NCBI GenBank assembly: GCA_026390935.1
Contig: JAPLEZ010000153.1
Location: 4,052-68,051 of the forward strand
Source: Bacteroidota bacterium
GTDB taxonomy: Bacteria; Bacteroidota; Bacteroidia; Flavobacteriales_C; GCA-002722245
Reading direction: 5' to 3'
Length of the DNA stretch: 64,000 nt
Shown here: piece after piece, positions 17,705 to 44,874 of the stretch
Numbering within the stretch: position 1 is the stretch's first letter
Layout of the letters: each line of letters starts with the position of its first letter
Notes under the pieces: model-generated
Told to the model about the DNA's origin: nothing
The model's database searches: none
The model's input: only the letters and a program-made list of their open reading frames with translations
Position numbers and translations under genes: made by a program

Positions 17705-17712
17705 TACTTTTG
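17705..17712 (+). promoter_or_regulatory. Candidate Bacteroidetes -7 promoter element (TAnnTTTG: tacttttg) ~18 nt upstream of start at 17731
   Basis: Seen in sequence; matches Bacteroidetes sigma-A -7 consensus. Confidence 0.25.
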
Positions 17713-17730
17713 CAGACACAATAGACCCCA

Positions 17731-18648: not shown

Positions 18649-18651
18649 AGC

Positions 18652-19386: not shown

Positions 19387-19389
19387 GGA

Positions 19390-22226: not shown

Positions 22227-22280
22227 CCGACTCTTCGCAAGCGCTTTATTTCCCAACAAATTAATTGTATTTTTAGGGCC

Positions 22281-27396: not shown

Positions 27397-27728
27397 CTTT
27401 ATTCCTCACAAAAACATAGGGCCAGAAGAGAGATCTTCAGCGGGAATCAATTAATCTATTGGTTTACCCATTTAAATTACAAAAACTAAATTTGACAGAA
27501 ATATTTTTGTATAGATCCTGCAAAAAGTTCAGGATGACGTTGGCTAGGTATCTCCTGAAGATTATGGTTCACCTTGGTCATCCTGAACTTGTTTCAGGAT
27601 CTATAAAAGAACCCGCCAGGCACTTCATGCATAGTGGATGACGACGTGGTGAAGCGAAGAATCGGGTATGAAAAATGGAATGTTTAATTTTTATTCCTGA
27701 CTTTATTCCTCACAAAAACATAGGGCCA
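27381..27728. repeat. 44-bp direct repeat (27381-27424 and 27685-27728) flanking a ~260-bp insert that carries an imperfect 25-bp inverted repeat (27514-27538 / 27577-27601)
   Basis: Copies identical by eye; copy 1 encodes the C-terminus of B2 (+), copy 2 encodes the C-terminus of the nucleotidyltransferase (-). Confidence 0.6.
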
Positions 27729-28811: not shown

Positions 28812-28897
28812 CTGCAGCTAAAATACATACTTTTATAGTTAACAAGTTGTGCTTCTCAAAATATTGTGTTTTAGCGTTAATGAATTACTTTTACGCC

Positions 28898-29791: not shown

Positions 29792-30658
29792 GTGCAAGGA
29801 AAAAACAACATAATTTGGCTTACGTCTTATCCTAAATCGGGCAATACCTGGATGCGCATGTTTTTGCATGCGTTGAAAACCGGTTGTGATCATGTGGAAA
29901 ATTTTGAACAGATTGAAGGTTCTGATGGCATTGCTTCTTCACGCTCTTTGTTGGATGAGTTATTGGGAATATATACTTCCGACATGGTGGATATTGAAAT
30001 TCAGAAATTAAGAGCAGATGCTTATCGCTTGTATTCATCTGAATTGACAGAAGAAATTATTGTGAAAGTTCATGATGCTGCTTTTCATGGCGGCATATTG
30101 ACTTTCCCTAAAGAGGTCACAAAAAAAGTAATTTACATAGTTAGAAATCCTTTTGATATGGTGGCTTCTTATGCTAATCATATGGGAAGCAGCATTGAAA
30201 AATCAGTGCAGTCTTTATGCGATGGAAATGGATTTTTGGCTGGAAATAAAAAGAAACTAAACAACCAAGTTACCCAATACATGGGCTCGTGGAGCGATCA
30301 CTACAACTCCTGGAAAAATTTGTATCGTGAAAATATTGAGGTGATTCGTTATGAAGATATGCTCAATGATTCCTTCGCTACTTTTAATAAAGTGGTGAAA
30401 TGCATCGGATGGGAGAAAACAAATGAGGAAATTGAAAAGGCAATAAGTGTGAGCGATTTTAAAAATTTGCGGTCGGTGGAAGAGCAGGCTGGATTTAGAG
30501 AGAAACCGAAAGAGACAAAACATTTTTTCCGACAAGGAAAATCCGGACAATGGAAAAATGAAATTACCCCTGAACAAGCGAAAACACTGGTCGACAGGCA
30601 TTTTTATACTTTGTTGGAATTGAATTATATTGATGCAGCGGGAAATATTTTGGTATGA
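29792..30658 (+). CDS. Sulfotransferase-domain protein (PAPS-dependent)
   Basis: IIWLTSYPKSGNTWMRMF (5'-PSB motif), IYIVRNPFDMVAS (3'-PB region). Confidence 0.7.
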   Translation: MQGKNNIIWLTSYPKSGNTWMRMFLHALKTGCDHVENFEQIEGSDGIASSRSLLDELLGIYTSDMVDIEIQKLRADAYRLYSSELTEEIIVKVHDAAFHGGILTFPKEVTKKVIYIVRNPFDMVASYANHMGSSIEKSVQSLCDGNGFLAGNKKKLNNQVTQYMGSWSDHYNSWKNLYRENIEVIRYEDMLNDSFATFNKVVKCIGWEKTNEEIEKAISVSDFKNLRSVEEQAGFREKPKETKHFFRQGKSGQWKNEITPEQAKTLVDRHFYTLLELNYIDAAGNILV

Positions 30659-32490
30659 GTGCTATATTCGGATATACAGGAAACACAGGTAGTGCAGAAG
30701 CTCTGTCAAAATCACTTAGGCATTGGCAACCTGATAGGGAAGCTATTTTGCAAGATGATAAGGTATCGCTTGGAGCATTGGAATTGTTCAATGTTCCTGA
30801 ATCCCCTTTAACTCCGCAACCCTACCAATACAAAGATTTGATAGTGGTTGCTGATTGCAGAATCGACAATAGGGAAGAGCTGGCAAAGGAATTTTCCATT
30901 AAGGATATTTCAGCCCACGCCGATATTGAATACATCGCTTTAGCCTATGAAAAATGGGGAAACGATGCGCCAAAATATTTAGTGGGCGATTTTGCTTTTG
31001 CAATTTGGGATAAAAAAAGTGATCAATTATTTGCTGCTCGAGATCATTTTGGAATTAAAACTTTGTACTATTCTGAAGTAAAAGGCGAACTTGTTTTTGC
31101 TTCCGAAATGAAAGGAATTTTGGCTTATCCTGGATTTAAAATTTCGTACAATGAAGAGTATATCATTAGTGAATTTTCAGCCTTAGAGCTTTCTGCCACC
31201 AGCACGTTTTACGACAATATTCATTTATTGCCTCAGGGATTTTCTTTGATCTGGAAAAATAAAATCGTGAGAAGCTCAGCCTATTGGACTTTTGGTGAAC
31301 GAACAGTAGAAATCCCTATAACTGTTGCCGAACAAGAAGCGGAGTTCAATCGCTTGGCCTATCAAAGCGTTCGAGACCGTTTGCGTTCGTTTAGAAGATT
31401 GGGTGCGGAGTCCAGCGGAGGATTGGATTCAACAGGTATTGCAGCCATTGCCATGGAAACTTTGGGCAAGGGAAAAGAGTTTTATTCTTTTGGTTATGGA
31501 AGGGCAGCCAATCCTACCACCGAGCAGGATGATAAGGATGACATGGACATCGTCCGGGATATGTGCGTAAAATACGGTATTGAAAAATATCTCACTGTTG
31601 TGAGTGAAAATGATTTGAATGGTCAGGAAATGCTTGATTTGATGATTGAGGTTTGCGATGATTACGAAAGCAACGGTGTGCCTTTAATGTCGTTGGCTCT
31701 GTTGAAGCACGCTGTGAAGAATGATGTTGGTGTGATGCTTTCTGGTTGGGCCGGAGATCAGGGAGTAACTTGTACAGCCGAAGGATTTTTTGAAAACTTG
31801 TCGAGGGAAAAAAGATACCGCGAGTTATGGAAAGATTTGCGCAGAAAACATTCGCGCTTAAAGGCACCATCCCGTTTTCTTTTTTACGTGTTGAAGGGTT
31901 GGAATAGAAATTCGTTTTATAAAAAGAACAATAAAGTAGAAAGATTGAATTTGGAGCTGGGTCCTTTAAAAGAGGAACTCATTGCTAAATACAATTTGAA
32001 AGAATTGAGAGGAGTAAACGCTTTCTTAAAGGATTGTTCCGACATTCAAACCTATTTCAAAAGAAATATACAGTATAAAGGTATTGAAAAAAGAACTTGT
32101 GATCATGTATTGATCGGTCAACATTTTCGCATTGAATACCGCTTTCCAATGCTAGATGTAAGATTGTTGGAGTACATTTATAGCTTGCCTTTTAGTACGA
32201 TAGCTCCGCAAGGGAAATCACGATATTTATTTAAAAAGTTGGTTCAACCTCTAGTGCCTCCTCGCCTAATCAGCATGCATAAAAGTTATGTTGCAACAAC
32301 ACCTTTTATCTTTAAGTTTAATGAAGCTTTTCTTCCCTTTGTGCGCGAGCAATTTTATGCTAACAGAAATCCGCTTTTAGATAAATATTTTGCGGTGCAA
32401 AAATTGGAAAAAGAAGGCTCTGAAAAGGAAGCTAAAAAAAGAAATAAAAGCTACCTAAAATTATACTTCTTTGCAAAGAAGATGAAATAG
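30655..32490 (+). CDS. Lasso peptide cyclase (C protein; asparagine-synthetase homologue lacking the Cys2 glutaminase nucleophile)
   Basis: Starts MSAIFGY (Ser in place of Cys), ARDHFGIKTLYY, ESSGGLDSTGIAAIA PP-loop; context with B1/B2/precursors/ABC. Confidence 0.7.
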   Translation: MSAIFGYTGNTGSAEALSKSLRHWQPDREAILQDDKVSLGALELFNVPESPLTPQPYQYKDLIVVADCRIDNREELAKEFSIKDISAHADIEYIALAYEKWGNDAPKYLVGDFAFAIWDKKSDQLFAARDHFGIKTLYYSEVKGELVFASEMKGILAYPGFKISYNEEYIISEFSALELSATSTFYDNIHLLPQGFSLIWKNKIVRSSAYWTFGERTVEIPITVAEQEAEFNRLAYQSVRDRLRSFRRLGAESSGGLDSTGIAAIAMETLGKGKEFYSFGYGRAANPTTEQDDKDDMDIVRDMCVKYGIEKYLTVVSENDLNGQEMLDLMIEVCDDYESNGVPLMSLALLKHAVKNDVGVMLSGWAGDQGVTCTAEGFFENLSREKRYRELWKDLRRKHSRLKAPSRFLFYVLKGWNRNSFYKKNNKVERLNLELGPLKEELIAKYNLKELRGVNAFLKDCSDIQTYFKRNIQYKGIEKRTCDHVLIGQHFRIEYRFPMLDVRLLEYIYSLPFSTIAPQGKSRYLFKKLVQPLVPPRLISMHKSYVATTPFIFKFNEAFLPFVREQFYANRNPLLDKYFAVQKLEKEGSEKEAKKRNKSYLKLYFFAKKMK

Positions 32491-33261
32491 ATGGGTGCAA
32501 TTTCTTATATAAAAGCCCGAACAAGTAATTTCAGAAATGCCATTTGGCATTCTAATAAATTTGGCTATCGCGTCCTCCGTCCACTATATGCCTCTGCGCA
32601 TTTTACTTTTTCCTTTTTATTCAATTCAGCATATCGAAATAAAACCATTGATTACTTAAAATACCGTAAGCATTACCATCAATTCCCAAATTTTACAAAG
32701 GCGAATCGTTATCCCGATTTATTTAGCATTTGTCAGCGATACTTTAAGGACAAAGAGCAGGTGAGAATTCTTTCTTTCGGATGCTCAACGGGTGAAGAGG
32801 TGTATAGTATCAATGAATATCTTCCTGAAGCTACCATTGTAGGAACCGATATTAGTGAATACAACTTGAAAGAGTGCAATAAAAAAGAGAAGAAGAAAAA
32901 CATTTCATTTATTCATAGCTTGTCGGAAACCTACCAACAAAGCAAAAATTTTGACGCGATATTTTGTTTGGCGGTTTTACAACACAACGATAATTTCAAC
33001 AAAGACATACCAACTGCTACTAAATATACCTTCAGTCAGTTTGAAGAGCAGATCATTACTTTAGACGAAAAGTTAAAATCAGGAGGCCTGTTTTTCATTG
33101 ATCAAACTGATTTCAATTTTTTGGAAACGAAACTCCGAAATCAATATTTTCCTTTGGAAGTTCGAGGCAATCGTAAAAGCAATCCCCGACCTTTATACAA
33201 TTCCAAAAATATCAGAATTTCCAATGAGCATAACTGTTTCAGGGTTTTTTTGAAGAAGTAG
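32491..33261 (+). CDS. CheR-type SAM-dependent (carboxyl) methyltransferase
   Basis: VRILSFGCSTGEEVYSI matches CheR motif (WSAGCSTGEEPYS); 256 aa. Confidence 0.55.
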   Translation: MGAISYIKARTSNFRNAIWHSNKFGYRVLRPLYASAHFTFSFLFNSAYRNKTIDYLKYRKHYHQFPNFTKANRYPDLFSICQRYFKDKEQVRILSFGCSTGEEVYSINEYLPEATIVGTDISEYNLKECNKKEKKKNISFIHSLSETYQQSKNFDAIFCLAVLQHNDNFNKDIPTATKYTFSQFEEQIITLDEKLKSGGLFFIDQTDFNFLETKLRNQYFPLEVRGNRKSNPRPLYNSKNIRISNEHNCFRVFLKK

Positions 33262-33311
33262 TGGTGAATTAATTGAATTTCTTTTATTTTTAGAAAAATA
33301 CCACATTGATT

Positions 33312-33437
33312 ATGGAAACAAAAAATGAAATAGAAGTAAAAAAAGTTTGGGTTAAACCTGAATTGAAAGTTGAAGAATTGAATATAACGGCTGTCAAAGG
33401 CACTAATATATTAGAAGGTGGTCCCTACCGCACTTAA
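33312..33437 (+). CDS. Lasso peptide precursor A1: METKNEIEVKKVWVKPELKVEELNITA|VKGTNILEGGPYRT (predicted core after leader Thr-2)
   Basis: Read by hand; not in ORF track (41 aa); shares leader KKVWVKPELKVEE with A2/A3. Confidence 0.65.
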   Translation: METKNEIEVKKVWVKPELKVEELNITAVKGTNILEGGPYRT

Positions 33438-33471
33438 TAGCATGTATAATTGAAATAATAGCATTTGCATT

Positions 33472-33591
33472 ATGAAAACAGAAAAAGAAGTAAAAAAAGT
33501 TTGGGTTAAACCTGAATTAAAAGTTGAAGAAGTAGAAGTTACTAATGGTGGTGGGGCGCGAGTTAGAGAATCAGGGACTTACAGAACGTAA
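33472..33591 (+). CDS. Lasso peptide precursor A2: MKTEKEVKKVWVKPELKVEEVEVTN|GGGARVRESGTYRT
   Basis: Read by hand (39 aa); leader Thr at -2, Gly1, Glu8 for 8-residue macrolactam. Confidence 0.7.
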   Translation: MKTEKEVKKVWVKPELKVEEVEVTNGGGARVRESGTYRT

Positions 33592-33595
33592 TTGT

Positions 33596-33805
33596 TTATA
33601 TCTCTTTGAGATAGTTAAAGAGTTCAAAATCTTTTTTGTAAAAGTCTTTAACCATTTCAAGTAATTCATCATCGTAAAATTCCATGAAATTCAAGTGCTT
33701 AGAGCTATTGATTTCATGGAATTTTGGTTTTGATAGGTTTAAGGTATTGAAGAAGGACTGGAGGATGAGCTTCGAGACCAATTTACTGTGGTGGCATGTG
33801 TTCAT
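33596..33805 (-). pseudogene. Truncated duplicate of the 3' end of the sulfotransferase gene at 34024-34650 (C-terminal ~47 aa near-identical)
   Basis: ...NLSKPKFHEINSSKHLNFMEFYDDELLEMVKDFYKKDFELFNYLKEI vs C-terminus of 34024..34650 product; nucleotide repeat 33592-33750 ~ 34017-34175. Confidence 0.6.
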
Positions 33806-33893
33806 TGCTTGGATAGTTGGCTTGCTGTCGCAGCTACATCGTCAATCATTGTTATTATTATCTAGATTTATTATTTTCGAAAAAAAATCACTC

Positions 33894-34019
33894 ATGGAAA
33901 ACAAGAACGAACAAGAAATTAAAAAAGTTTGGGTTAAACCTGAAGTTAAAGTTGAAGAAGTAGATGTTACTAATGGTGGTGGGCCGGGATTGAGAGAAGG
34001 AGGGACTTACAGATCGTAA
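33894..34019 (+). CDS. Lasso peptide precursor A3: MENKNEQEIKKVWVKPEVKVEEVDVTN|GGGPGLREGGTYRS
   Basis: Internal Met of track ORF 33684..34019; same leader; only last 41 codons judged real. Confidence 0.7.
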   Translation: MENKNEQEIKKVWVKPEVKVEEVDVTNGGGPGLREGGTYRS

Positions 34020-34023
34020 TCGT

Positions 34024-34650
34024 TTATATCTCTTTGAGATAGTTAAATAGTTCAAAATCTTTTTTGTAAAGGTCTTTAACCATTTCAAGTAATTCATCAT
34101 CGTAATATTCCATGAAATTCAAGTGCTTAGAGCTATTGATTTCATGGAATTTTGGTTTTCCTAGGTTTAAAGCACTAAAGATGTGCTGAAGGTCATTGTT
34201 GAAGTTTTCCACCTTTCCTATAAAATCCATTTTGAGTTGGCGGTTTTCATTGACTAAGAATTCAAACTGCGGCAGCAAATGAATTTTTGATTCCAGATTT
34301 TCCTTACTAAGCATTTTTTTAATTTCGTCTCGATGTACTGAAGGACTTATGTTTTCAGTCTTTTTTATGAAGAAGTAATAGGAGATGAGTCTATCGTATG
34401 GATTGCGAACAAAAGCAAATTTATAATATTCGTTGATTAATGGCTTGAAGTAGGGTTCTACTTCCGTATACTTTAAATGACCATGTGGAATATCGGCCAG
34501 TTTTTTAAAAGGAAGTTTGCTCGACTTAAATAATGCAACCTGTTCAAGGTCCTTTTCAGACAGATGTTCCCGCAAAGCAAAGCGCACTGAATGTGTTCCT
34601 GTTTTAGGAATCGCAAAAAACATAAATTTATGTTGGTGGCTGATGATCAC
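34024..34650 (-). CDS. Sulfotransferase-family protein (second sulfotransferase of the cluster)
   Basis: FFAIPKTGTHSVRFAL (PKTGTT-type 5'-PSB motif), VRNPYDRLISYY. Confidence 0.6.
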   Translation of the reverse strand: MIISHQHKFMFFAIPKTGTHSVRFALREHLSEKDLEQVALFKSSKLPFKKLADIPHGHLKYTEVEPYFKPLINEYYKFAFVRNPYDRLISYYFFIKKTENISPSVHRDEIKKMLSKENLESKIHLLPQFEFLVNENRQLKMDFIGKVENFNNDLQHIFSALNLGKPKFHEINSSKHLNFMEYYDDELLEMVKDLYKKDFELFNYLKEI

Positions 34651-35240
34651 AATTCAAAGTCGGGTTTTGGAACATCATTGATTTCGGCATCCAGATATTC
34701 GAATATTAAGTGAATACGAGCTGTATTGCCGTCGTTTCTTACGGCGTGCATGCCTGAATTGTCCATTTCATAGGCTTTGCCTTTTTCAAAATAATAGTCG
34801 ATTCCTCTCACCGAAAAAACAACCTGCGGATTTGTAATTATTGGAATGTGAATTTTATGGGGAGGCCAGAAAATATAGTCAGAATCAATGTGTTCGGGAA
34901 TTATGGTACCCGGAACCATGCGCGCCAACATCACTCTCGGAAAAAATCCTTTTTTATAGCCATAAGGTTCTACGGCTTTTTGCATGATTGGCAGCAAAAC
35001 AGCTTTATACTTGTCCCACAATTCCAAATCGAAATAGACACAGGGACCTTCTAGTTTTTTACTCCAACGAAAATTGACGTGATTGACTTGTGATAGAGAG
35101 TATTTTTTATTTTGATTGACTTTAAAATCTTCCTCCTTATCCCATTCATATATCAATTCGGGAAGTATTTTAATTAAAGGGTTAATGTCAACTTCCCCTA
35201 AAAACCGCACGCTGTTTGTTTTGCAATTGTTTTTTTCCAT
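34647..35240 (-). CDS. Aspartyl/asparaginyl beta-hydroxylase-family (AspH/LpxO-like) Fe(II)/2-oxoglutarate oxygenase
   Basis: PEHIDSD...H...NSGMHAVRNDG...RIHLIF cupin-type metal-binding pattern; 197 aa soluble. Confidence 0.45.
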   Translation of the reverse strand: MEKNNCKTNSVRFLGEVDINPLIKILPELIYEWDKEEDFKVNQNKKYSLSQVNHVNFRWSKKLEGPCVYFDLELWDKYKAVLLPIMQKAVEPYGYKKGFFPRVMLARMVPGTIIPEHIDSDYIFWPPHKIHIPIITNPQVVFSVRGIDYYFEKGKAYEMDNSGMHAVRNDGNTARIHLIFEYLDAEINDVPKPDFEL

Positions 35241-35307
35241 TAGTCTTCCTATTGCTTGATAAAGATATCGGTAAAATTATCTTATTTTTGCTCAAAATCT
35301 AGGAATC

Positions 35308-35580
35308 ATGGACTTGAATAAAAAAATCTCCCGCAGCGATAATTATGTTTTCAATGAAGTGGATGGAGAGTTGGTAATGATGAACATTGAAACAGGTTCG
35401 TACGCGAGCTTAAATGAAACTGGGAAATCTATTTGGTTGCAGTTGGAAACAGCTAAAACATTGGATAGTGTGATTGAAGGTTTGATTGCCGAATATGAAA
35501 TTGATAGAGCTACTTGTGAGCAAGAAGTTTTTCCTTTCGTGGAAAAAATGGTAAAAGACGAAATACTGATTTTAGCTTAA
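35308..35580 (+). CDS. PqqD-like RiPP recognition element (lasso peptide B1 protein)
   Basis: 90 aa, NEVDGELVMMNIETGSYASLNETGKSIWLQLETAKTLDSVIEGLIAEYEID - PqqD family pattern. Confidence 0.65.
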   Translation: MDLNKKISRSDNYVFNEVDGELVMMNIETGSYASLNETGKSIWLQLETAKTLDSVIEGLIAEYEIDRATCEQEVFPFVEKMVKDEILILA

Positions 35581-35609
35581 TTTTTATTGTGAGGGCCTGG
35601 AGTTTCGTG

Positions 35610-36812
35610 CTATAACTCTGTAATTTTTATCTCCGATTTTAAATTCTTTAGAGCAAAATTCACTTTGAATTTATTTCCTTTTTGTGGTGAAATAAAATAC
35701 AGTTGAGAGCTCCAATGATTGCTGGGATCCACTTTTTGAGGATGCATAGAAAGAACGTTGTTGCTCGATAATTCTGTTTCAAAGTACAGTAGCATTCCGT
35801 TGAAAATTCCGGAATTTTCCAAAGAAAATATTTTTTCACAATCTTCTACTTTATCTACAGCGTTTGAAAAATCTAGATGAGCCAATTCTATTGGTTCAGA
35901 AAGCACTTTCCAGTTTTTAGTTTCAGTGCTATTGATGTTGATTTTTTGTAAAGTTTGTTTGTCGTTAAATTCAAGGAACGAGGAAAAATCAACACCATAC
36001 CATTCTTTCCAATGGACAATATTTTCTGGTGACAATTGATTTTGATGGTATTTTTTAAAATCTGCTTCAACCGCCATTCCAAATACTGTAATGCTTTTGG
36101 GAATTATAATCGCGATGGGAGTGAGTAATCTCTCTTTAGCATCTTTAAAGGTTTTAATAATGCCTTCCTGGAAGGGATCATTCCCAATGATTTCGCTTAC
36201 CAAAACGGTGGCTTTTTCGGGTAAGGTTATTTTTGTCGAATCGCCGTGGATCAAAGTTATTTTATCTTCCAGTCTGTTGGCTTTAAAAACGGCACTTGCC
36301 ACTTCAATAAATTCGGTCCTTTCAATGGCATACACATGCTTTGCTCCGGCCATGGCTGCAGTAGCGGCTAATATGCCATTGCCAGTTCCAATATCTAATA
36401 CAATGTCGTTTGGGGTTACGGTTTCACGAATGGCTTTTTGAAAAGCTAATGTTCGCGCTTTATCGTTCAACATTCGGATATGAACAGGAAAGGAATCAAA
36501 TTTTCCGCTATGGAAACCAAAGGTGTTTTTGCTTTCGTCTTTTACTTCAAAAAAGCCTTTTTTGAGTAAGTCGTGAAAATCAGCAGTAAATGTTATAAAG
36601 GAACTTTTATCTGTGCAGCTGTCAGCTATTTTTTTGAGTCCGTCTTCAATGCTAGTCCATTGTTGAAAAACCTCCACAAGTTTTAATACTTCATTTGATT
36701 TTTTTATCCTCAACTCCCCATTAGAAATAGTAAAGCCCGAATCGGTAAATTGAAAATTTACTTTTCTATTGAATCTAATGATGTCTTTTTTGTTTATTTT
36801 CATGGAAATCAA
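35610..36812 (-). CDS. Protein-arginine-N-methyltransferase-like class I SAM methyltransferase
   Basis: DIVLDIGTGNGILAATAAMAGAKHVYAIE...LVSEIIGN closely parallels PRMT1 motifs I/post-I/II (VLDVGSGTGIL...AGARKVIGIE...IISEWMGY). Confidence 0.5.
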   Translation of the reverse strand: MISMKINKKDIIRFNRKVNFQFTDSGFTISNGELRIKKSNEVLKLVEVFQQWTSIEDGLKKIADSCTDKSSFITFTADFHDLLKKGFFEVKDESKNTFGFHSGKFDSFPVHIRMLNDKARTLAFQKAIRETVTPNDIVLDIGTGNGILAATAAMAGAKHVYAIERTEFIEVASAVFKANRLEDKITLIHGDSTKITLPEKATVLVSEIIGNDPFQEGIIKTFKDAKERLLTPIAIIIPKSITVFGMAVEADFKKYHQNQLSPENIVHWKEWYGVDFSSFLEFNDKQTLQKININSTETKNWKVLSEPIELAHLDFSNAVDKVEDCEKIFSLENSGIFNGMLLYFETELSSNNVLSMHPQKVDPSNHWSSQLYFISPQKGNKFKVNFALKNLKSEIKITEL

Positions 36813-36862
36813 ACTTAGTTAAATTTTGTAACTTGCAGGAAATTCTAAAGCGATTAAATCAA

Positions 36863-36988
36863 ATGGAAAATAAAATCAAAGAAGGAAAAAAAGTTTGGAT
36901 TAAACCTGAATTGGAAATTGAAGATGTGCTTTTAACCGAAGGCGGTCGAAATACTCCTGCTCCCGAGAACAGCACTCAGCGTACTTAG
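36863..36988 (+). CDS. Lasso peptide precursor A4 (divergent core): MENKIKEGKKVWIKPELEIEDVLLTE|GGRNTPAPENSTQRT
   Basis: Read by hand (41 aa); leader motif KKVWIKPELEIE; C-terminal RT. Confidence 0.6.
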   Translation: MENKIKEGKKVWIKPELEIEDVLLTEGGRNTPAPENSTQRT

Positions 36989-37021
36989 TTCAAGTAGCTT
37001 TTAAATAAAGCGAAACTCTAT

Positions 37022-37963
37022 ATGTATGGCACTTTTCAAAGACTTCAGCTCAGTGAAATAGATGAGCAGCAAGTAAGTTTGTCGGAACGCTACATTTCCC
37101 CCAACATTCAAATATTTGAAAAGGCTTTTTGTGATTTTAGAAAAGAGGTAGATGAGATTTGGAAAGCGGGATTTTCATCAACAATAAGTGCCCAAAAAAA
37201 TTCCTTTTTAAAAGAGAAAATTGAACAAAGCAAGAAGAAATTATTTTCTTCGGAAATAGCTGCATATCCTGTTGGAATATGCTATCCTCTTTCAGAAATA
37301 GCATTTCAATTCCTTATGGAATTGGAAGTGCACGATCCAAAATCGGTATTTTATTCTTTGCGTGAATTCCTTGAAAAAGGCGGCATCATTAAAGTAATTT
37401 GGGGAGAAGTTCGGCATGAGTTTTTTCAAACTTCTTTGCAAATTGGAGAATGGTGTGTTGATGTTGCCAACGATACCGTGGATGTGAAAAAACCTAAGGT
37501 GGTGTGTTTTAAGCTTACTGCTTCCGATTGCCCTTTTCATGAAGTTTTATCAATAGAGCAATATGTGCAAATAAAGCGATCGTATCATGATTGCACCATT
37601 TATGTGAATACCATATTTCCGCATTTATTTCCTTACTTTCCACTGCTGGTGCTTCAAAATAAAGATGGAAAAATCAGTTTAGACACATCCATTTGTGTGC
37701 TTGATTTGACATTGAGCAAGGGTTATGACTTTGTTTTTTCTTCTTTGTTTCAACCATTGCCAAAAGAAGTTTTTGAGCGCATATCAATAAAGGTGGATCG
37801 TTTGCGCGCTAAGTATCAATATGCTGAATTGCTGGAGTGTAGAAATTGCGCACTTGAAGAATTGGCAAAACTAAGTGTTGCTCAAGTGTTAACCGATAAA
37901 GCCACCATGACCAAAGTTAAAGCCACTGTGAAATACATTAATTTTATGGTGAATGCTTTGTAA
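37022..37963 (+). CDS. Hypothetical protein inside lasso cluster (no recognisable motif)
   Basis: 313-aa ORF, good coding appearance, co-oriented between precursor A4 and ABC exporter. Confidence 0.3.
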   Translation: MYGTFQRLQLSEIDEQQVSLSERYISPNIQIFEKAFCDFRKEVDEIWKAGFSSTISAQKNSFLKEKIEQSKKKLFSSEIAAYPVGICYPLSEIAFQFLMELEVHDPKSVFYSLREFLEKGGIIKVIWGEVRHEFFQTSLQIGEWCVDVANDTVDVKKPKVVCFKLTASDCPFHEVLSIEQYVQIKRSYHDCTIYVNTIFPHLFPYFPLLVLQNKDGKISLDTSICVLDLTLSKGYDFVFSSLFQPLPKEVFERISIKVDRLRAKYQYAELLECRNCALEELAKLSVAQVLTDKATMTKVKATVKYINFMVNAL

Positions 37964-38001
37964 GTCTTTTGCTGCCCAACATAAAAGCTTATTTTTGATC
38001 A

Positions 38002-39660
38002 ATGCACAATCTTAAATCCATACTTTCATTTTTCAAATTGATGCTTTCGCATTTCAGGTGGAAGATTGTATTGATTGTGTTGTTCGGTATACTTTTTTCC
38101 TTTTTTCAGGGCGTAGGAATTGTAATGATTATTCCACTGCTGGAATCTTTTCAGAACAATGGAAATTCCATGTTTACCAAGGTGTTTGAGTTTTTGGGCT
38201 GGAGTGGTGGATTGAATCAATTGTTGTTGATTTATTTTTTGATTTTACTTTTTTATGCGCTCTTCAAAGCTTTGCAAATTTTATACACGCAACGCACGAT
38301 CGCACGTTTTTCCAATCAATTTGCAGTAGATGCCATGCAGCATTTGCTAACGGCCAATTGGGAATTTTATTTAAAAGTACCTTCTTCACAAATCATTAAT
38401 TTATTGAAAACCGAAAGTCGTTCGGTGAAAACATTGGCGCATTTTCTTTTTCAGGCAATGCAGGGCGCAATATTAATTGCCATTCAATTGTTTTTTGCTT
38501 GCTGGATTTCTGTTAAGCTCACAGCACTTTTGCTGGTGATACTGGTATTTTTATTTCTCATTCAGCGCTTTGTTTTTAAAGCCAATTACAATTTAGGAAA
38601 GGGAAATGTGGGCTTGTCGGAATTTTTACAAAAATATCTCAACGAGACTTTTAAAGGAATAAAACTATTGAAGTTACACCGACTGGAACTGAAAAAAGGT
38701 AAAGAGTACGAGGAACAAATGGAAAGAATTTACCAAAATGAAATTAAGAAGTCGACGATGGATGCTTTGAGCGATTTGCTGTACACCTTGTCGGGAGCGC
38801 TCATCATTATTTTAATGATAGGATTCAGCATTTCTTACAATTTACTTTCTATTACGTCCTTATTGGTTTTACTGGTTTTATTTTCCAGGGTAATTTCACA
38901 GTCTACAGCTCTTGTTCAAACTACAGGTTATATTGTGAATTTAATTCCATCTTTTAATCGCTTTGCTGAAATAGTTGATTTGGCGAAGGAAAGCGCACAG
39001 CAACCTTCAGAGAAGTTGGAAAGAAGAAATATTGCATCATTGGAATTGAAAAACATTCACTTCTCTTTTGGAGAGAAAAAAATATTGAACGATCTCAACA
39101 TCAAATTTGAAAAAGGAAAATTTTATGTGCTCACTGGTGCAAGCGGAGTGGGAAAAACCATTACTTCCGATTTGATTTGCGGATTGATTTCGCCTCAGCA
39201 AGGAGAAATCATCATTGATGGAAATATAGTGAGTATAGAGCTCTTAAAAAGCTATCAGGCGTCTATCGGTTATGTTTTGCAGGATACTGTTTTGTTTGGC
39301 ACTTCCATCCGCAACAACATCACTTTCATGGAAAATTATTCCGATGAACAAATTTTAAATGCTGCACATAAAGCCGGATTGAAAAGTCTTTTGGAAAAAT
39401 TGCCCGAAGGATTAGATGCTATTGTGAAAGAAGACAATCGCGGATTTTCGGGAGGTGAAATGCAACGCATTGCCATTGCCCGTGCGCTCATTCGCAAAAC
39501 TCCTTTGATTATTTTGGATGAGGTAACCAACGCTTTGGATAGAAAAAACGAAGACATTATTTTGGCTACGATCAACGAAATAAAAAAAGACAGCATTGTG
39601 ATTTTAATCACGCATAAAGAGTATTTGTTTGATTTGGCCGACGAAGTAGTACGTTTGTAA
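38002..39660 (+). CDS. ABC transporter, fused permease/ATP-binding protein (lasso peptide exporter D candidate)
   Basis: N-terminal 6-TM region; Walker A GASGVGKT, signature FSGGEMQRIAIARAL, Walker B LIILDEVTNALD. Confidence 0.8.
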   Translation: MHNLKSILSFFKLMLSHFRWKIVLIVLFGILFSFFQGVGIVMIIPLLESFQNNGNSMFTKVFEFLGWSGGLNQLLLIYFLILLFYALFKALQILYTQRTIARFSNQFAVDAMQHLLTANWEFYLKVPSSQIINLLKTESRSVKTLAHFLFQAMQGAILIAIQLFFACWISVKLTALLLVILVFLFLIQRFVFKANYNLGKGNVGLSEFLQKYLNETFKGIKLLKLHRLELKKGKEYEEQMERIYQNEIKKSTMDALSDLLYTLSGALIIILMIGFSISYNLLSITSLLVLLVLFSRVISQSTALVQTTGYIVNLIPSFNRFAEIVDLAKESAQQPSEKLERRNIASLELKNIHFSFGEKKILNDLNIKFEKGKFYVLTGASGVGKTITSDLICGLISPQQGEIIIDGNIVSIELLKSYQASIGYVLQDTVLFGTSIRNNITFMENYSDEQILNAAHKAGLKSLLEKLPEGLDAIVKEDNRGFSGGEMQRIAIARALIRKTPLIILDEVTNALDRKNEDIILATINEIKKDSIVILITHKEYLFDLADEVVRL

Positions 39661-39674
39661 AAATTTAATTTCTG

Positions 39675-40847
39675 TTGATTATGAATTTTTCTGAAGTGAT
39701 TCATCCTGTTACGGTAAAAGAATTTTTTGACGACTATTACGAAAAAAAACCTTTGTACATTGCACGAAACAATCCTTCGTATTACCATACTTTCCTGAGT
39801 GTGCAGGAGATTGATGCTTATTTACAATTGAAGCAAACTTATGCGCCAAATGTGAAAATGGCTTTTCAAGGAAAGGAAGTTTCTCCATTGTTGTTTTGTG
39901 ATCCCGCAGGTTCTGTTGTGCCATTTAGAGTGAACCCTGATAAAATGCTCGACTTGTTCAAACAGGGTTACACCATTAAATACGATAAGTTGCACCAAAC
40001 CTATCCTCCCTTGGCGCAAAAGGTATCGGCCATTGAGCAGGAGATTGGCATTAAAATTAGAACGAGTTTGTACATTACTCCAGAAAATTCACAGGGATAC
40101 GGTGTTCATACCGACAGGCACGATGTGTTGGCGTTGCAAATTAATGGTGCAAAAATTTGGAAAGTGAAATCTTCCACAGAAATTTTGCCTTCGGTTTACC
40201 AAACCAATATTGCAGTGAATTGGACGGAAGAAGGTGTTCAGGAAATTTGTTTGAAGGCGGGAGATTTTTTTTACTGTCCGCGTGGATTAGCGCACGATGT
40301 GTTTACCAAAGATCAGTCGTCCATACACTATACCCTCGGATTCAAACCCGTGTACGGCTACAATCTCGTTGAAAAATTAAGCGCCTTGGCTTATAAAAAT
40401 TCTTTTTTCAGAAGTGCCGTTCCAAATAATTTTTCATCTGTTGCAGACAGGGATTCATACCAAAAGAGATGGCAAAAAGAATTGGAAGAAATAATTGCGT
40501 TGATGAATTTTGATGATGTTGATGTTTTGGGAGAAGAAGCGACAAAGCAGTCCCAAATAAATTTTGAAGCCGGCAGGTTTATTGCGCAAATTTATCAGCC
40601 TTCACTGAGCGATAAATTTGTTCTTTGTTCAATACCTTGGGAATTAACTTTTACAAAAGTGGCTTGCAGAATTGATATTCTTGGTGGAAAGCACGACTTT
40701 CCTTATTTGCTAAAAGAGTTTTTTGAGAATATTAAAAGCGATACGCTATTCTCTACTTCGCTGGATAAATTGAACTTAAATGATGCTCAAAAGTTGAAAT
40801 TGATCAAAAGATTATTGAAAATACAATTGATTCGAAAGGTTGATTAG
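39675..40847 (+). CDS. JmjC/cupin-4-family Fe(II)/2OG oxygenase (RoxA/YcfD-like ribosomal-oxygenase fold)
   Basis: GYGVHTDRHDVLALQINGAKIWKV (HxD) ... CPRGLAHDV (distal His). Confidence 0.55.
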   Translation: MIMNFSEVIHPVTVKEFFDDYYEKKPLYIARNNPSYYHTFLSVQEIDAYLQLKQTYAPNVKMAFQGKEVSPLLFCDPAGSVVPFRVNPDKMLDLFKQGYTIKYDKLHQTYPPLAQKVSAIEQEIGIKIRTSLYITPENSQGYGVHTDRHDVLALQINGAKIWKVKSSTEILPSVYQTNIAVNWTEEGVQEICLKAGDFFYCPRGLAHDVFTKDQSSIHYTLGFKPVYGYNLVEKLSALAYKNSFFRSAVPNNFSSVADRDSYQKRWQKELEEIIALMNFDDVDVLGEEATKQSQINFEAGRFIAQIYQPSLSDKFVLCSIPWELTFTKVACRIDILGGKHDFPYLLKEFFENIKSDTLFSTSLDKLNLNDAQKLKLIKRLLKIQLIRKVD

Positions 40848-40985
40848 GTGTGGTACTCAGCGTCTTCCCTTATGTTCAATATACCACCACCTAGCGTGGA
40901 ATCTAGCTCTAAATCAGTCATTGCAGGAGCAACCCATTGTTTTTTTTCTGGTGTCATAAGAATTAATTTTTTCAAAGATAGTAAT

Positions 40986-42005
40986 TTATAGTTTAGGATA
41001 CTGCATGCTGATGCAGTGAATGGAGCCATGCTGCTTGATTAGCGGAACACTGTTGATGGAAATAATCTCTTTATCAGGGAATATGCTTTGCATTATTTTC
41101 AGTGCCTCTGCGTCTTTGCTGGAATTGTAAATTGGAAACAAAATCGCATCATTCATAATTAAAAAATTGGCGTAGGTGGCCGGAAGTCTTTCGCCATCGT
41201 CATCATAAGCTGCATCAGCCATAGGGAGGGCAACGAGTTTGTATTTTTCACCTTGCAAATTAGTGCAACGTTGCAGTTCTTCTTCCATCTTGCTCAATTC
41301 GCTGTAATGCTCATCGTTGGGATCATCGCACTTCACATAGGCAATGGTATTTTCGTTGCAGAAACGTGCGAGGGTATCAATGTGACTGTCGGTATCGTCT
41401 CCAGCTAGATAACCATGATTGATCCAGATGACTTTTTCAACGTGCAGCAATTCCTTGAGTAGCTTTTCAATTTCGGTGATGGTCCATTGAGGATTACGGT
41501 TTTCTTCCAGCAAACATTCGCTGGTAGTCATTAGCACGCCTTGTCCGTCTACTTCCAAGGATCCGCCTTCTAGCACAATGTGGTTTAAATCTTTTATTGT
41601 CCAGGAGGAAGGAAAAGCTTTTGCATCATAAAGTTTTTGAGTGATGGCGCTGTCTTTTTCAGCAGCGAATTTTTTGCCCCAGCCGTTGAATTGAAAATCT
41701 AAAACAACAGGCTTTCCATTTTCTAAAATGGTAATTCCGCCGTGATCTCTTGCCCAGGTATCGTTCACATCACATTGGTAAATTTCAATGTTGTTGAGGT
41801 TACAATGTTGCACATAAGATTTTACTTCTTCCACATTTTGTGCGGCGATGATGAGTTTTTGACGCTTTGCAATTTCAAAAGCAATTTTTTTGTAGCACTC
41901 TTGAACCTCATCCCAAATGTCGGCCCAGTCGGTGTTTTGGTGAGGCCAGGTGAGTTGTACCGCGCTTTGCGGAAACCATTCGGGGGGGAAGAAGTTATGA
42001 TTCAT
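40986..42005 (-). CDS. Agmatine deiminase / Porphyromonas-type peptidylarginine deiminase family protein
   Basis: N-term FFPPEWFPQSAVQLTWPHQNTDW (cf. AguA MPAEWEPH..TWMxWP), C-term GSIHCISMQ (catalytic Cys, cf. GGIHCITQQ). Confidence 0.75.
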   Translation of the reverse strand: MNHNFFPPEWFPQSAVQLTWPHQNTDWADIWDEVQECYKKIAFEIAKRQKLIIAAQNVEEVKSYVQHCNLNNIEIYQCDVNDTWARDHGGITILENGKPVVLDFQFNGWGKKFAAEKDSAITQKLYDAKAFPSSWTIKDLNHIVLEGGSLEVDGQGVLMTTSECLLEENRNPQWTITEIEKLLKELLHVEKVIWINHGYLAGDDTDSHIDTLARFCNENTIAYVKCDDPNDEHYSELSKMEEELQRCTNLQGEKYKLVALPMADAAYDDDGERLPATYANFLIMNDAILFPIYNSSKDAEALKIMQSIFPDKEIISINSVPLIKQHGSIHCISMQYPKL

Positions 42006-42032: not shown

Positions 42033-44321
42033 TTATTTTCCTATTAAAGGTTTTTCAATTTCAAAGCTATCTACTTGATTGCAATAACATAGGAAGGCAA
42101 CGCTTTTCAAGTCTACAATCATTTGATTTTCTTTTAGAATTTGTTCTTGTTTTTTTTCTGCATCCGATGGTCCTTTTTTACTTGTCCATTGTATTCTTGG
42201 AAATGCTATAGCGCTGTTGGAGATGGATTGTGTAAGTATTTTATCGACATCCTCCATTCTTTTTTGCAAATCACCATCCACTTTAAAAGTTTTCATTTGT
42301 GCTCGAATATCCTGAATACTGGTAAGCATTAAATTTACTTCAATTTGTTGTGAAGCATAAGGATTATAACGCAACGCGAACCATTGGTAGGCATCTCCTT
42401 TTTTATCGATGGCCATGCAATAGGTGTTTTTCATTTGTTGTCCTTCTGCACTTTTTTCCAAAGGGAACAATGCTGTTGCAAAACCATTTTCAATATTGAG
42501 CGGAGTTACATTGTTGATTGTGTTTAACCATTGATAAATTTCAGTAGTACCTGCCATGTTATTAATTTTCATTTTTAAAGAAATGAAACCGTTTGAAAGA
42601 ATATGTAAATAAGCATCAATGTTTACCCAGCCGCTTTTTGCCCAGTTGAAGGCATGAGAGTTAGCAGTGGCAACAGATCTTTTAGGTAAGTTATTCGCCA
42701 TTTTTTCTGCCCTTTCGTTTTCTTTTTTAATTGTTGCAGCAAGATCATTCAATTCTTTTGTCTGCATGTTTTTCCATGTGCTGATTAGGTCTGTTTGTGC
42801 TTTTTGATATTCATTTCTTTTTTTGGAATAGTAGGCCGAAAGTTGTTCTTGATAAATAGCAGCATCTTTAATATTGGTGCATTTTTGTGATGCAAAATTT
42901 TCAAAAATGTTTTTGTCTTTTCCACTTAATTTTTCTGCTACCAAGGAATCAGAAACACATAAATCCTGATTCAAATGATCAACATAAATTTTAAGCATTG
43001 CATCTCCGCTATCGAGTTTGTGTAAAGCACGCACTCTGTCTTCAAATTCTTTTGTTGCGATAAAACTTTTGGAAAACTCTTTGGTTTTAATGGTTTTGAT
43101 GGAGGAGGGATTGATTCCGCATGAGATTTTTTTTTGATTGCTAAAAGCAGTAGCAGTCGCAATAGCATCAGATCCATAATATGTTGAATCCATTCCTCCC
43201 TTATTGTTGCGGATGATTGATGTAGTAATCTTTTCTGATCTAGGTTTCAATGCAAGAGGCACTAATGTTCTTGTGCTTTGCTCTAAGCTATAATACAAAC
43301 TATCCACTAAGTCTTTATTCGCTTTTTTATGATTTTTGTATGGAACATAAGTCTCCACCTTTTGAGTAAAACCTTCCGGTAAAAAATCCAAATCTTTCAA
43401 CGGAACATTCACCAAATATTTTTTTAATGCTTTTGGATTTTCCCAGTTTAATTTTCCGTTTTCTTGCACTTTTCCTTCAAAGGCCATCATTCCATCTTTT
43501 ATTTCGTTTGTAGGAATTTCAATATACAAGGGACGAGCAGGATTGATTTTAACTTCTTTGTTGTTGCTAACTGCTCTGATGTGTAGCATCCCTCCGCTTT
43601 CCAACGGAGTACCGTTAGATGTGGTTCCGAGATTGTACAATATCATATCTTCTAAGTTGAGGGCTTCCACCAATTCAACAACAACTTCACCTTGCACTAC
43701 TTGATTGTTATCGTCCACAAATGCGTTAGATGGAACAATAATTAAAGTTCCTTCCTTTCCTTCGATGGTAGTGCTTTTTGCTGCATCCATAGGAAAGATT
43801 TGTACATCAGGTTTTACCCATGTATTCAATCCGTTAAAATTGTAGCAGTCATTTACTTTTTCTTTCGGAGTTGTATTGGCAACTATATTTTTTGAAGTTC
43901 CGGCAAAAGATTGTTGTTGTGTGTTAGCTGTTGTTGTGCTGTTTTCTTTTTTTACTTCCGGAAGTGCTTCACTCGTTTCTTCTTCTTTTGTGATAGTGCT
44001 GATTTCTTTTGTAGGAGCTTCAGTTTTTTCTGCTTCTTTTGGGTAGAAAAAATATGCGGAAGCGCTTATTGCAATGATAATTCCCGCAATGATGGCAATG
44101 TTCCCTGCATTGAATCCTCCATTGCCTTTAGCTGCTTTTTTAATCTCTTTCCTTATTCCAATTCTTTTGGCTGTTTGAATAATATCTTTTTGAATTTGCA
44201 CCTGCTGCTGCAACTCAGCATTTTCGTTCAATGCAGATTCAAAATCTTCTTTTTCTTTTCCCGATAATTCACCATTCAGGTACTTATCGATCAGTTCTAT
44301 ATTTTCCAATGACGGTCTCAT
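42033..44321 (-). CDS. Putative anti-sigma factor: N-terminal cytoplasmic anti-sigma-like segment, single TM, large extracytoplasmic domain
   Basis: N-term IDKYLNGELSGKEKEDFESAL typical of Bacteroidetes anti-sigma proteins; TM IAIIAGIIIAISASAYFFY; immediately downstream of ECF sigma gene. Confidence 0.4.
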   Translation of the reverse strand: MRPSLENIELIDKYLNGELSGKEKEDFESALNENAELQQQVQIQKDIIQTAKRIGIRKEIKKAAKGNGGFNAGNIAIIAGIIIAISASAYFFYPKEAEKTEAPTKEISTITKEEETSEALPEVKKENSTTTANTQQQSFAGTSKNIVANTTPKEKVNDCYNFNGLNTWVKPDVQIFPMDAAKSTTIEGKEGTLIIVPSNAFVDDNNQVVQGEVVVELVEALNLEDMILYNLGTTSNGTPLESGGMLHIRAVSNNKEVKINPARPLYIEIPTNEIKDGMMAFEGKVQENGKLNWENPKALKKYLVNVPLKDLDFLPEGFTQKVETYVPYKNHKKANKDLVDSLYYSLEQSTRTLVPLALKPRSEKITTSIIRNNKGGMDSTYYGSDAIATATAFSNQKKISCGINPSSIKTIKTKEFSKSFIATKEFEDRVRALHKLDSGDAMLKIYVDHLNQDLCVSDSLVAEKLSGKDKNIFENFASQKCTNIKDAAIYQEQLSAYYSKKRNEYQKAQTDLISTWKNMQTKELNDLAATIKKENERAEKMANNLPKRSVATANSHAFNWAKSGWVNIDAYLHILSNGFISLKMKINNMAGTTEIYQWLNTINNVTPLNIENGFATALFPLEKSAEGQQMKNTYCMAIDKKGDAYQWFALRYNPYASQQIEVNLMLTSIQDIRAQMKTFKVDGDLQKRMEDVDKILTQSISNSAIAFPRIQWTSKKGPSDAEKKQEQILKENQMIVDLKSVAFLCYCNQVDSFEIEKPLIGK

Positions 44322-44325
44322 ATCC

Positions 44326-44874
44326 TTACTTTTTAGGTTTGTGATCAGCAGCCAGGCGGATGGCCTGCTCCATGCATTTGTACTTTTGTGTTTTGGCCGA
44401 ATTCACGGAAGAGAATCCCAATGCCGCAGCTAAATTTTCCATGGATTCTTTTTTAAAGTAGAATCGCTCAAAAATTTCCTGGCACTTTGCCGAGAGTGAA
44501 GAAATAATACGTTCCATAGCAACGAATTTTTCTTCTTGTACATGATCATAACCGATGTCTTGTTCGGATATTATTAGAGTGTCACTCCATTCCAATTCTT
44601 GTGTTTTATTTTGTTTGCGCAATTGGTTTTTCCACAATAAGCGAGCGATGCCATAGAGATAGGTGGATAATTTTGAAGTGAGTTCAAATTTCGGATCGCT
44701 GACTTTTTCAATGAGCAGCAATAAACTATCATTAAAAATTTCTTCAGCACTTTCTGTATTTCCACCCGATGTGATGATGTTGTGCTTTATTTTTGGGAAC
44801 TCTTTGTAGAGAACCTTCAAAGCTTTTTCCCTTTGGCCCTCCCTTATTTTACTAATTATTTCATGGTCTTCCAT
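44326..44874 (-). CDS. RNA polymerase ECF-type sigma-70 factor
   Basis: 182 aa; region-2-like KEFPKIKHNIITSGGNTESAEEIFNDSLLLLIEKV and region-4 HTH (SMENLAAALGFSSVNSAKTQKYKCMEQ). Confidence 0.65.
   Translation of the reverse strand: MEDHEIISKIREGQREKALKVLYKEFPKIKHNIITSGGNTESAEEIFNDSLLLLIEKVSDPKFELTSKLSTYLYGIARLLWKNQLRKQNKTQELEWSDTLIISEQDIGYDHVQEEKFVAMERIISSLSAKCQEIFERFYFKKESMENLAAALGFSSVNSAKTQKYKCMEQAIRLAADHKPKK

Follow-up and report, generated by a model that had tools for sequence, protein, structure and literature searches.

A Bacteroidota lasso peptide island with a PRMT-like methyltransferase and a JmjC oxygenase, flanked by a backbone agmatine deiminase

We analyzed a 64,000-nucleotide stretch of DNA from an uncultured Bacteroidota genome (hereafter the window), which is Bacteroidota-like in its DNA, has a low GC content (~38%), and carries a gene cluster for lasso peptides, a kind of peptide that ribosomes synthesize and that is modified after translation (RiPP). 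Three of its genes are the subject here: one for a methyltransferase resembling the protein arginine methyltransferases (PRMTs; 35610-36812, minus strand), one for a JmjC-type oxygenase (39675-40847, plus strand), and one for a deiminase (40986-42005, minus strand). A sequence-only reading of the window had proposed that all three belong to the lasso cluster and tailor a conserved arginine of the precursor cores by methylation, hydroxylation, and conversion to citrulline. Comparison with related genomes separates these genes, since the first two lie within a lasso island and the deiminase lies outside it. The explanation that we favor overall, and that we hold with reasonable confidence, is a lasso island whose tailoring enzymes include a PRMT carrying a RiPP recognition element (RRE) and a JmjC oxygenase, with the deiminase outside as the polyamine gene aguA.

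Borders of the island and the flanking deiminase

The borders of the lasso island, at about 26945-40991 (14.05 kb), were set by blastn against a close genome (L127). Window positions 25058-26944 and 40992-41996 match neighboring segments of L127, which carries both window flanks in the same order without any lasso gene, and the lasso genes therefore form an island between these positions. On one side, L127 encodes RND efflux genes, a TetR regulator (84% identity), an asparaginyl-tRNA synthetase (AsnRS, 94%), a helix-turn-helix (HTH) protein (90%), an extracytoplasmic function (ECF) sigma factor (94%), an anti-sigma factor (49%), and the deiminase (88%). On the other side, and convergent with these, are the orthologue of a 629-aa AsnB protein (81%), a GT2 glycosyltransferase (80%), another AsnB (86%), and a GT1 glycosyltransferase, so ordered that the stop codons of AsnB and aguA are ~70 bp apart. 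Homology between the window and L127 stops at 26944, within the start region of the gene for the leader peptidase B2. The island also differs in composition from its surroundings (GC 0.34-0.36 versus 0.40-0.41 in the flanks), and its neighbors are a polysaccharide-biosynthesis cluster on one side and the backbone block AsnRS-HTH-ECF-anti-sigma-aguA on the other. Its genes specify five precursors, the central lasso machinery (B1/PqqD, B2, cyclase, and ABC exporter), and many tailoring functions; an Asn-synthetase-like cyclase, a transglutaminase-like peptidase, and an RRE, by which lasso clusters are recognized, are all present. Inside these borders are the genes for the PRMT-like and JmjC proteins and for all five precursors; the gene for the deiminase is outside.

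The deiminase reading frame has the AguA/PPAD-family signatures at both termini, including the catalytic Cys, as had been described from the sequence. Its match to PAD_porph (PF04371, E = 5e-119) is full length (residues 6-337 against profile positions 2-321 of 321), with Cys331 in the motif GSIHC, and it is 55-62% identical to thousands of Bacteroidota proteins annotated as 'agmatine deiminase family'. The relatives in the PDB are either named agmatine deiminases (from Helicobacter, Enterococcus, and plants) or uncharacterized putative or hypothetical proteins, the top match being the 'conserved hypothetical protein' 1ZBR of P. gingivalis (3e-115). The full-length PAD_porph domain with its catalytic Cys is shared with the AguA-AguB pathway from agmatine to putrescine, as is the succession of orthologous deiminase genes and an aguB-like CN_hydrolase gene. 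Thus, in a locus without lasso genes (L084), a 77% identical deiminase has the same ECF (79%) and anti-sigma (51%) genes upstream and is directly followed by a CN_hydrolase gene whose best NCBIfam match is aguB (TIGR03381, 301 bits). A CN_hydrolase gene also directly follows the deiminase gene in L125 (62%) and in a Reichenbachiella locus (L126, 61%). Five orthologous lasso clusters (L004, L005, L006, L087, and L088) have no deiminase, and in Chryseobacterium loci AsnRS is directly followed by the terminal precursor. The proposal that three arginine-modifying enzymes sit in the cluster therefore does not stand for the deiminase, which is outside the 14-kb island and keeps its position in island-free L127; the pairing of its orthologues with aguB and its absence from orthologous clusters, findings of the kind that the sequence-only reading had itself named as refuting, likewise largely refute a role as lasso tailoring enzyme. 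We conclude that it is most probably an ordinary polyamine-pathway agmatine deiminase, located beside the island by position only.

Two observations speak the other way. The first is that a tblastn search with the L084 CN_hydrolase found no aguB in the window, and the lack of an aguB neighbor had been taken to weaken a polyamine role. That argument fails because L127 also has no adjacent aguB, which makes the missing neighbor a feature of the lineage (the window, L127, L003, and L082) and not of the island. The window protein also differs from AguA of the AguA-AguB pathway in scoring below the NCBI cut-off for TIGR03380 (224 bits against 381.8), a shortfall that appears typical of this Bacteroidota clade because the aguB-linked L084 orthologue scores about the same (230 bits). 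The second is that aguA and the last precursor gene of the island, P5, which lies downstream of it on the same strand, are separated by only 28 bp, with a similar arrangement in L003, and co-transcription of P5 with aguA is possible.

This proximity raises the alternative that the backbone gene aguA was recruited for a second role, that of a peptidyl-arginine deiminase (PAD) acting on P5 or its L003 equivalent, the cores of which both contain ...RE, with Arg directly before the ring Glu. We consider this highly unlikely. The equivalent precursor follows AsnRS without any deiminase in L005 and L006, and in L082 aguA adjoins the cluster with no precursor after it. Neither the aguA-model score, which equals that of the aguB-linked orthologue, nor the divergence of the gene, which keeps step with its ECF neighbor (88% and 94% in L127, 77% and 79% in L084), sets the window protein apart. 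The precedent invoked for citrullination was citrulassin, a lasso peptide in which Arg is converted to citrulline. Citrullination of a lasso peptide is known for one enzyme only, the citrulassin deiminase, which belongs to PF03068 (human-PAD-like), is encoded far from its cluster, and has no significant homology to PF04371; the window protein is instead an aguA orthologue of PF04371, and the Pfam scan gave that family only, with no PF03068 match. For the calling of cluster boundaries, the case shows how one close island-free genome can expose a plausible 'clustered PAD' as a flanking polyamine gene.

The PRMT-like protein and its candidate substrate

The 400-aa translation of 35610-36812 (minus strand) contains the motifs VLDIGTGNGIL, AGAKHVYAIE, and SEIIGN (within SEIIGNDPFQE), on which the sequence-only reading had based a PRMT-like methyltransferase. 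This part of the reading is borne out and strengthened, since the product is a true PRMT homologue with a predicted N-terminal RRE and has relatives that recur in lasso clusters. The catalytic core and beta-barrel span residues ~100-400 (35610-36515, minus strand), and the RRE-fold domain spans residues 1 to ~95 (36528-36812, minus strand). Since both the homologues and the gene caller start at MKINKK, translation probably begins at the ATG at 36803. Mechanically called reading frames in the window probably start too far upstream at 36803-36812, 39675-39681, and 38002-38040; an independent gene call on an identical contig assigns 397 aa to the PRMT, 388 aa to the JmjC protein, and 539 aa to the ABC exporter, with homologues starting at the internal ATG.

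In Pfam, the product matches PrmA (1e-9) and PRMT_C (PF22528, 1.6e-8). A homologue search returned 134 sequences of ~400 aa, and residue conservation was assessed in an alignment of 32 of these. Invariant residues are H111, D117, and R120 of the HxxMLxDxxRT helix, G142, G144, and G146 of motif I, E164 of post-I, E207 and E216 of the double-E loop (nine residues apart), and W367 at the THW position. The class I S-adenosylmethionine (SAM) motif I is present as VLDIGTGNG and post-I as AIE with the invariant E164, and the N-terminal helix motif that closes over SAM (YFxxY...HxxMLxDxxRT) is present as FDSFPVHIRMLNDKARTLAFQ. The double-E loop SEIIGNDPFQE aligns to SEWMGYCLFYE of PRMT8, and the THW loop aligns to that of PRMT8 with an invariant W367, a nearly invariant N365, and a variable middle His (NHW/NSW/TSW). 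In characterized PRMTs, the double-E glutamates, the Trp of the THW loop, and the HxxMLxDxxRT helix bind the guanidinium group. Searched against the PDB, the alignment profile matches PRMT1-9/CARM1 only (E = 1e-40 to 1e-51), across the core and beta-barrel. An AF2 model of the protein (pLDDT 91) finds TbPRMT7, PRMT6, PRMT9, and PRMT3 in Foldseek (E ~1e-21 to 1e-23), and its predicted C-terminal beta-barrel superposes on those of TbPRMT7 and PRMT3 (TMt 0.74-0.80). The window protein thus shares with the eukaryotic type I/III PRMTs (PRMT1, PRMT3, PRMT6, PRMT7, PRMT9, and CARM1) a Rossmann SAM domain with GxGxG, the post-I acidic residue, the double-E loop, a THW-like loop, the C-terminal beta-barrel, and a similar predicted fold (TM ~0.7-0.8). 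It differs from them in being bacterial and encoded in RiPP clusters, in its low identity (22-26%), in the variable His, and in its N-terminal module, which is a predicted RRE in place of their SH3, zinc-finger, or TIM-like modules.

In the predicted structure, the first ~95 residues fold as an RRE, with a three-stranded sheet followed by three helices in a winged-helix-like arrangement. The matches of this domain to RRE structures, with tabulated values of 9.6 for MccB, 9.2 for MadB, 8.9 for NisB, 8.7 for TigE, 8.6 for ThcOx, 8.3 for the PbtF RRE, 7.9 and 7.8 for the lasso B1 proteins TfuB1 and TbiB1, 7.3 for TglI, 6.8 for LynD, and 6.7 for PqqD, are what leads us to regard the product as a predicted RRE-PRMT fusion.

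The PRMT-like gene is not peculiar to the window. A locus scan with one genome per species yielded 456 loci with PRMT-like relatives, and we analyzed the neighborhoods of the best 80. At least two lasso markers were present within 10 kb in 37 of these 80 loci (jackhmmer), and an HPr-kinase-like gene in 36, so that the PRMT-like gene recurs as part of lasso clusters of the kinase type. More than 10 phyla are represented among the 37 loci, which include Bacteroidota, Gammaproteobacteria, Kiritimatiellae, Chloroflexota, Acidobacteriota, Gemmatimonadota, Actinomycetota, Cyanobacteria, Planctomycetota, Myxococcota, and Methylomirabilota. In two Acidobacteriota loci (L007, 4367-5828; L009, 10001-11520), a separate PqqD-like gene comes immediately after the PRMT-like gene, and no further lasso marker lies within reach; here the enzyme family may operate in another RiPP context.

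The five precursor genes of the island are P1 (33312-33437, plus strand; core ...VKGTNILEGGPYRT), P2 (33472-33591, plus strand; core GGGARVRESGTYRT), P3 (33894-34019, plus strand, within a 284-nt tandem duplication; core GGGPGLREGGTYRS), P4 (36863-36988, plus strand, divergent from the PRMT gene; core GGRNTPAPENSTQRT), and P5 (40844-40957, minus strand, convergent with the JmjC gene at the island edge; core GGGILNIREDAEYHT). In all five, the leader carries KKxWxxP, position -2 is Thr, core position 8 or 9 is Glu, and the last residue is Ser or Thr. That all cores carry a conserved Arg, as had been stated, is true in that each has at least one Arg and untrue in that no position is common to all: the penultimate residue is Arg in four of the five (YRT, YRT, YRS, and QRT) and His in the fifth (YHT), and Arg directly precedes the ring Glu in three. 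Besides precursor P2/P3, the duplication (33481-33764 and 33909-34192, 90% identity) took in the 3' end of the Sulfotransfer_2 gene, and it left between P2 and P3 a truncated C-terminal sulfotransferase fragment (reverse-strand reading frame 33596-33805).

In the mechanism that we propose, the RRE would dock on the conserved KKxWxxP leader of the linear precursor, and the PRMT core would then methylate a core Arg on a guanidino nitrogen, with SAM as the methyl donor. The site may be the Arg beside the C-terminal Ser/Thr or the one directly before the ring Glu. Methylation would take place before leader cleavage and lasso formation, alongside an HPr-kinase-like modification of the C-terminal Ser/Thr. 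The families, the folds, the borders of the island, and the co-occurrence are shown by the data; the residues acted on, the sequence of steps, and the chemistry are inferred. The product of 35610-36812 is, on this evidence, most likely a leader-guided peptide arginine N-methyltransferase. We think it highly probable that the enzyme acts on a lasso precursor, and put the odds of Arg being its acceptor only a little above even; this choice of acceptor follows from the invariance of the guanidine-binding residues, and the precursors give it no independent support. The generalization that RRE-fused bacterial PRMTs are leader-guided and install omega-N-methylarginine on lasso precursors in kinase-type clusters of more than 10 phyla is tentative, at slightly less than an even chance.

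Several results weigh against these proposals. The N-terminal domain has no Pfam PqqD match, and in hhalign it aligns with PqqD and lasso B1 proteins over the full length and in register at a probability of only 7%; because of this weak sequence-level support, the RRE call rests on the predicted structure. About half of the 80 PRMT-like loci lack lasso genes. Among ~34 cores of PRMT-containing clusters, collected by regular-expression and hidden Markov model scans, ~23 contain Arg, which is near chance for cores of 15-20 residues, and with no fixed position we rejected Arg as a conserved feature of these precursors. Some cores have Lys or His at the C-terminal Arg position or have no basic residue at all, and the available sequence of L004, L087, and L062, which in L004 and L087 is limited by contig ends, contains no Arg-bearing core. 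A complete absence of Arg precursors in L082 and L004, which we also considered, was weakened by L089 and L088, which show further precursors beyond the first loci. Two core motifs recur: seven cores contain ...RE, with Arg directly before the ring Glu, and in window P1-P4 and in L002, L013, L026, L045, and L056 an Arg stands at -2 or -3 relative to the C-terminal Ser/Thr.

These results bear on the alternative that the RRE-PRMT is a lasso methyltransferase with an acceptor other than Arg, such as a Lys or His near the C-terminus, the C-terminal carboxylate, or a phosphate that the kinase would add. Arg is not present in every core and has no constant position, Lys or His replaces it in some cores (FKS, YHT, and FKQS), and the PRMT-like gene in lasso loci is almost always linked to an HPr-kinase-like gene. 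Across phyla the enzyme shows no variation in the two glutamates of the double-E loop, the Trp of the THW loop, and the HxxMLxDxxRT helix; all its structural and sequence neighbors are arginine methyltransferases, and we therefore regard a non-Arg acceptor as unlikely and retain Arg as the preferred acceptor.

PRMTs are regarded as essentially eukaryotic signaling and chromatin enzymes. If our reading is true, a prokaryotic PRMT would have an assigned function for the first time, and guanidino N-methylation would, as far as the searchable literature shows, be new to RiPPs of any kind; we found no report there of Arg N-methylation of lasso peptides or of a PRMT-like gene in lasso clusters. The modification is absent from the lists of lasso modifications in two reviews (PMC13352647; PMC9266682). 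SAM-dependent tailoring of lasso peptides is itself known (PMC13352647), and the known enzymes, the lassomycin-type C-terminal O-methyltransferase and the LihM/PIMT-type aspartimide-forming O-methyltransferase, are carboxyl O-methyltransferases of other families, unlike the window protein with its PRMT guanidine-binding architecture and a predicted RRE of its own. Methyl-Arg beside a phosphorylated C-terminal Ser/Thr might interact with the phosphorylation, in the manner of eukaryotic Arg-methyl/phospho switches. The recurrence of RRE-PRMTs in lasso clusters offers a concrete, testable substrate class for bacterial PRMT homologues and, if confirmed, a compact, leader-directed arginine methyltransferase for peptide engineering.

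The JmjC oxygenase

The JmjC/ROX-type Fe(II)/2-oxoglutarate oxygenase gene (39675-40847, plus strand) is the last enzyme gene of the island. Its reading frame, its family (JmjC_2, PF08007; E = 5e-23), its HxD...H signature, and its place in the cluster all hold as had been proposed, and the suggested hydroxylation of Arg finds no support. The triad H145, D147, and H207 and the 2-oxoglutarate-binding K160 are invariant in seven orthologues. Against the PDB, the protein matches the His hydroxylases NO66/MINA53 at 1e-16 over ~280 residues, B. subtilis YxbC at 4e-10, and the Arg hydroxylase YcfD at 1e-4 over 88 residues only. Each of the nine Flavobacteriales-type clusters (the window, L002-L006, L082/L089, L087, and L088) has this gene together with the PRMT gene, and its position shifts among them, always with a precursor gene adjoining it; an equivalent of P5 adjoins its 3' end in L003, L004, L005, L006, L087, and L088. 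Distant relatives (27-34% identity) mostly have no lasso genes nearby, the exceptions being L090 and L093. We conclude that the enzyme is a genuine tailoring oxygenase of the Flavobacteriales-type lasso clade. Mechanistically, it would use Fe(II) and 2-oxoglutarate to hydroxylate the family of precursors whose gene adjoins the 3' end of its own.

The target residue of this enzyme is probably not Arg, because its nearest solved relatives are His hydroxylases and the adjacent precursors often lack Arg (L004, L087, L082, L090, and L093). In two metagenome contigs (L090, 211-1230; L093, 1486-2476), a lasso-type precursor with core GGAAFNDSEDPTFFHT lies directly upstream of a JmjC gene of the L082/L002 subclade; the precursor's conserved N-D pair and a His near its C-terminus are possible sites of hydroxylation. 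We also considered whether the last ~100 residues of the JmjC protein form an RRE, and hhalign against PqqD and the PRMT N-terminal domain was not significant. There is precedent for a JmjC enzyme hydroxylating a RiPP side chain in BpmG of the biphenomycin pathway, which acts on ornithine (PMC12257519), and bacterial PF08007 proteins have been noted in RiPP-like contexts (PMC12710340). NO66, MINA53, YcfD, and BpmG share with the window protein the JmjC_2 double-stranded beta-helix with HxD...H, and the window protein is distinguished from them by its lasso context and its 27-34% identity to non-lasso relatives.

With the JmjC evidence in hand, the proposal that PRMT, JmjC oxygenase, and deiminase together tailor a conserved core Arg can be weighed as a whole. 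It draws on the presence of Arg in all five window cores, on the location of the three genes within 6.4 kb, on P5 lying directly downstream of the deiminase on the same strand, and on the hydroxylation of Arg by YcfD, a distant relative of the JmjC protein. For the deiminase it is already largely refuted by the location, conserved without the island, the aguB pairing, the five clusters without the gene, and the PF04371 rather than PF03068 assignment; for the JmjC oxygenase it runs counter to the closeness to His hydroxylases and to neighboring precursors that often lack Arg. As a joint account of the three enzymes, it is hardly credible.

A further alternative is that the PRMT and JmjC enzymes modify not the peptide but a protein of the producer, for example a ribosomal protein, as a means of self-immunity. 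The ROX oxygenases and PrmA have ribosomal substrates, the JmjC protein belongs to the ribosomal-oxygenase family, PrmA is the best single Pfam match of the methyltransferase domain, and lasso systems provide a precedent in the Lys acetylation of triculamin and lariocidin (PMC13352647). The methyltransferase nevertheless has an RRE-fold domain like those of leader-binding RiPP enzymes, a precursor gene always adjoins the JmjC gene, and the ABC exporter already represents the usual immunity route, so that we judge self-immunity very improbable and keep to peptide tailoring as the role of both enzymes.

Other genes of the island and its flanks

The first island gene encodes the transglutaminase-like lasso leader peptidase B2 (26911-27396, plus strand; Transglut_core3, 1.7e-20). 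It is followed by an NTP_transf_5 nucleotidyltransferase-like tailoring gene (27684-28811, minus strand; Pfam 4e-43), which is found in 26 of the 80 PRMT loci, and by an HPr-kinase-like lasso precursor kinase gene (28790-29791, plus strand) with weak Hpr_kinase_C and HprK_rel_A matches, whose product presumably phosphorylates the C-terminal Ser/Thr of the precursors. Further plus-strand genes encode a sulfotransferase (29792-30658; Sulfotransfer_1, 1.3e-28), the lasso cyclase or C protein (30655-32490; Asn_synthase; NCBIfam NF033535, 268 bits), and a class I SAM methyltransferase that is unrelated to the PRMT (32491-33261; Methyltransf_25/31/11) and kept in L002, L003, and L082.

Beyond the first three precursor genes lie, on the minus strand, a second sulfotransferase gene (34024-34650; Sulfotransfer_2, 6e-21) and the gene for an Asp/Asn beta-hydroxylase-like 2-oxoglutarate oxygenase (34647-35240; Asp_Arg_Hydrox, 1.9e-11). 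These two genes form an overlapping pair (34024-35240) that recurs in Gemmatimonadota lasso clusters (L036 and L045), which suggests peptide hydroxylation followed by O-sulfation. The PqqD-type RRE, or lasso B1 (35308-35580, plus strand; PqqD, 1.7e-16), precedes the PRMT gene. Between P4 and the JmjC gene are the genes for a conserved 313-aa protein without a Pfam or NCBIfam match (37022-37963, plus strand) and for the ABC exporter, or D protein (38002-39660, plus strand; ABC_membrane and ABC_tran). The 313-aa protein is kept beside the PRMT gene in L003-L006 and L082 (31-41% identity); we considered it as a divergent B2 peptidase and rejected this (hhalign probability 0.1%).

In this gene content the island resembles the kinase-associated clusters of the paeninodin/pseudomycoidin type, with which it shares the HPr-kinase-like and NTP_transf_5 genes, the split B1/B2, the cyclase, the ABC exporter, and precursors with a KKxWxxP leader and a C-terminal Ser/Thr (PMC9266682). 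It goes beyond them in its RRE-PRMT, JmjC oxygenase, Asp/Asn-hydroxylase-like gene, two sulfotransferases, second methyltransferase, and five precursors, and it differs in its host, an uncultured Bacteroidota genome.

The left flank (12235-26947) is a polysaccharide cluster of the O-antigen or capsule type, with genes for a DegT aminotransferase, WbqC, a GDP-mannose dehydratase, GT1 and GT2 glycosyltransferases, and two Asn-synthase-like amidotransferases. One of the latter, the 629-aa AsnB (25058-26947), whose gene adjoins that of the lasso peptidase, was considered as a second lasso cyclase and rejected: it scores as a true Asn synthase or exopolysaccharide amidotransferase, and it is a backbone gene of the polysaccharide cluster that is kept in island-free L127. 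On the right, upstream of aguA, the backbone encodes on the minus strand the ECF sigma factor (44326-44874; Sigma70_r2) and a putative anti-sigma factor (42033-44321). The pair also stands upstream of aguA in L084 and L127, both without lasso genes, and in L005 it lies within the lasso cluster. Between relatives, the putative anti-sigma factor diverges far faster than its ECF partner (42-51% versus 79-94% identity).

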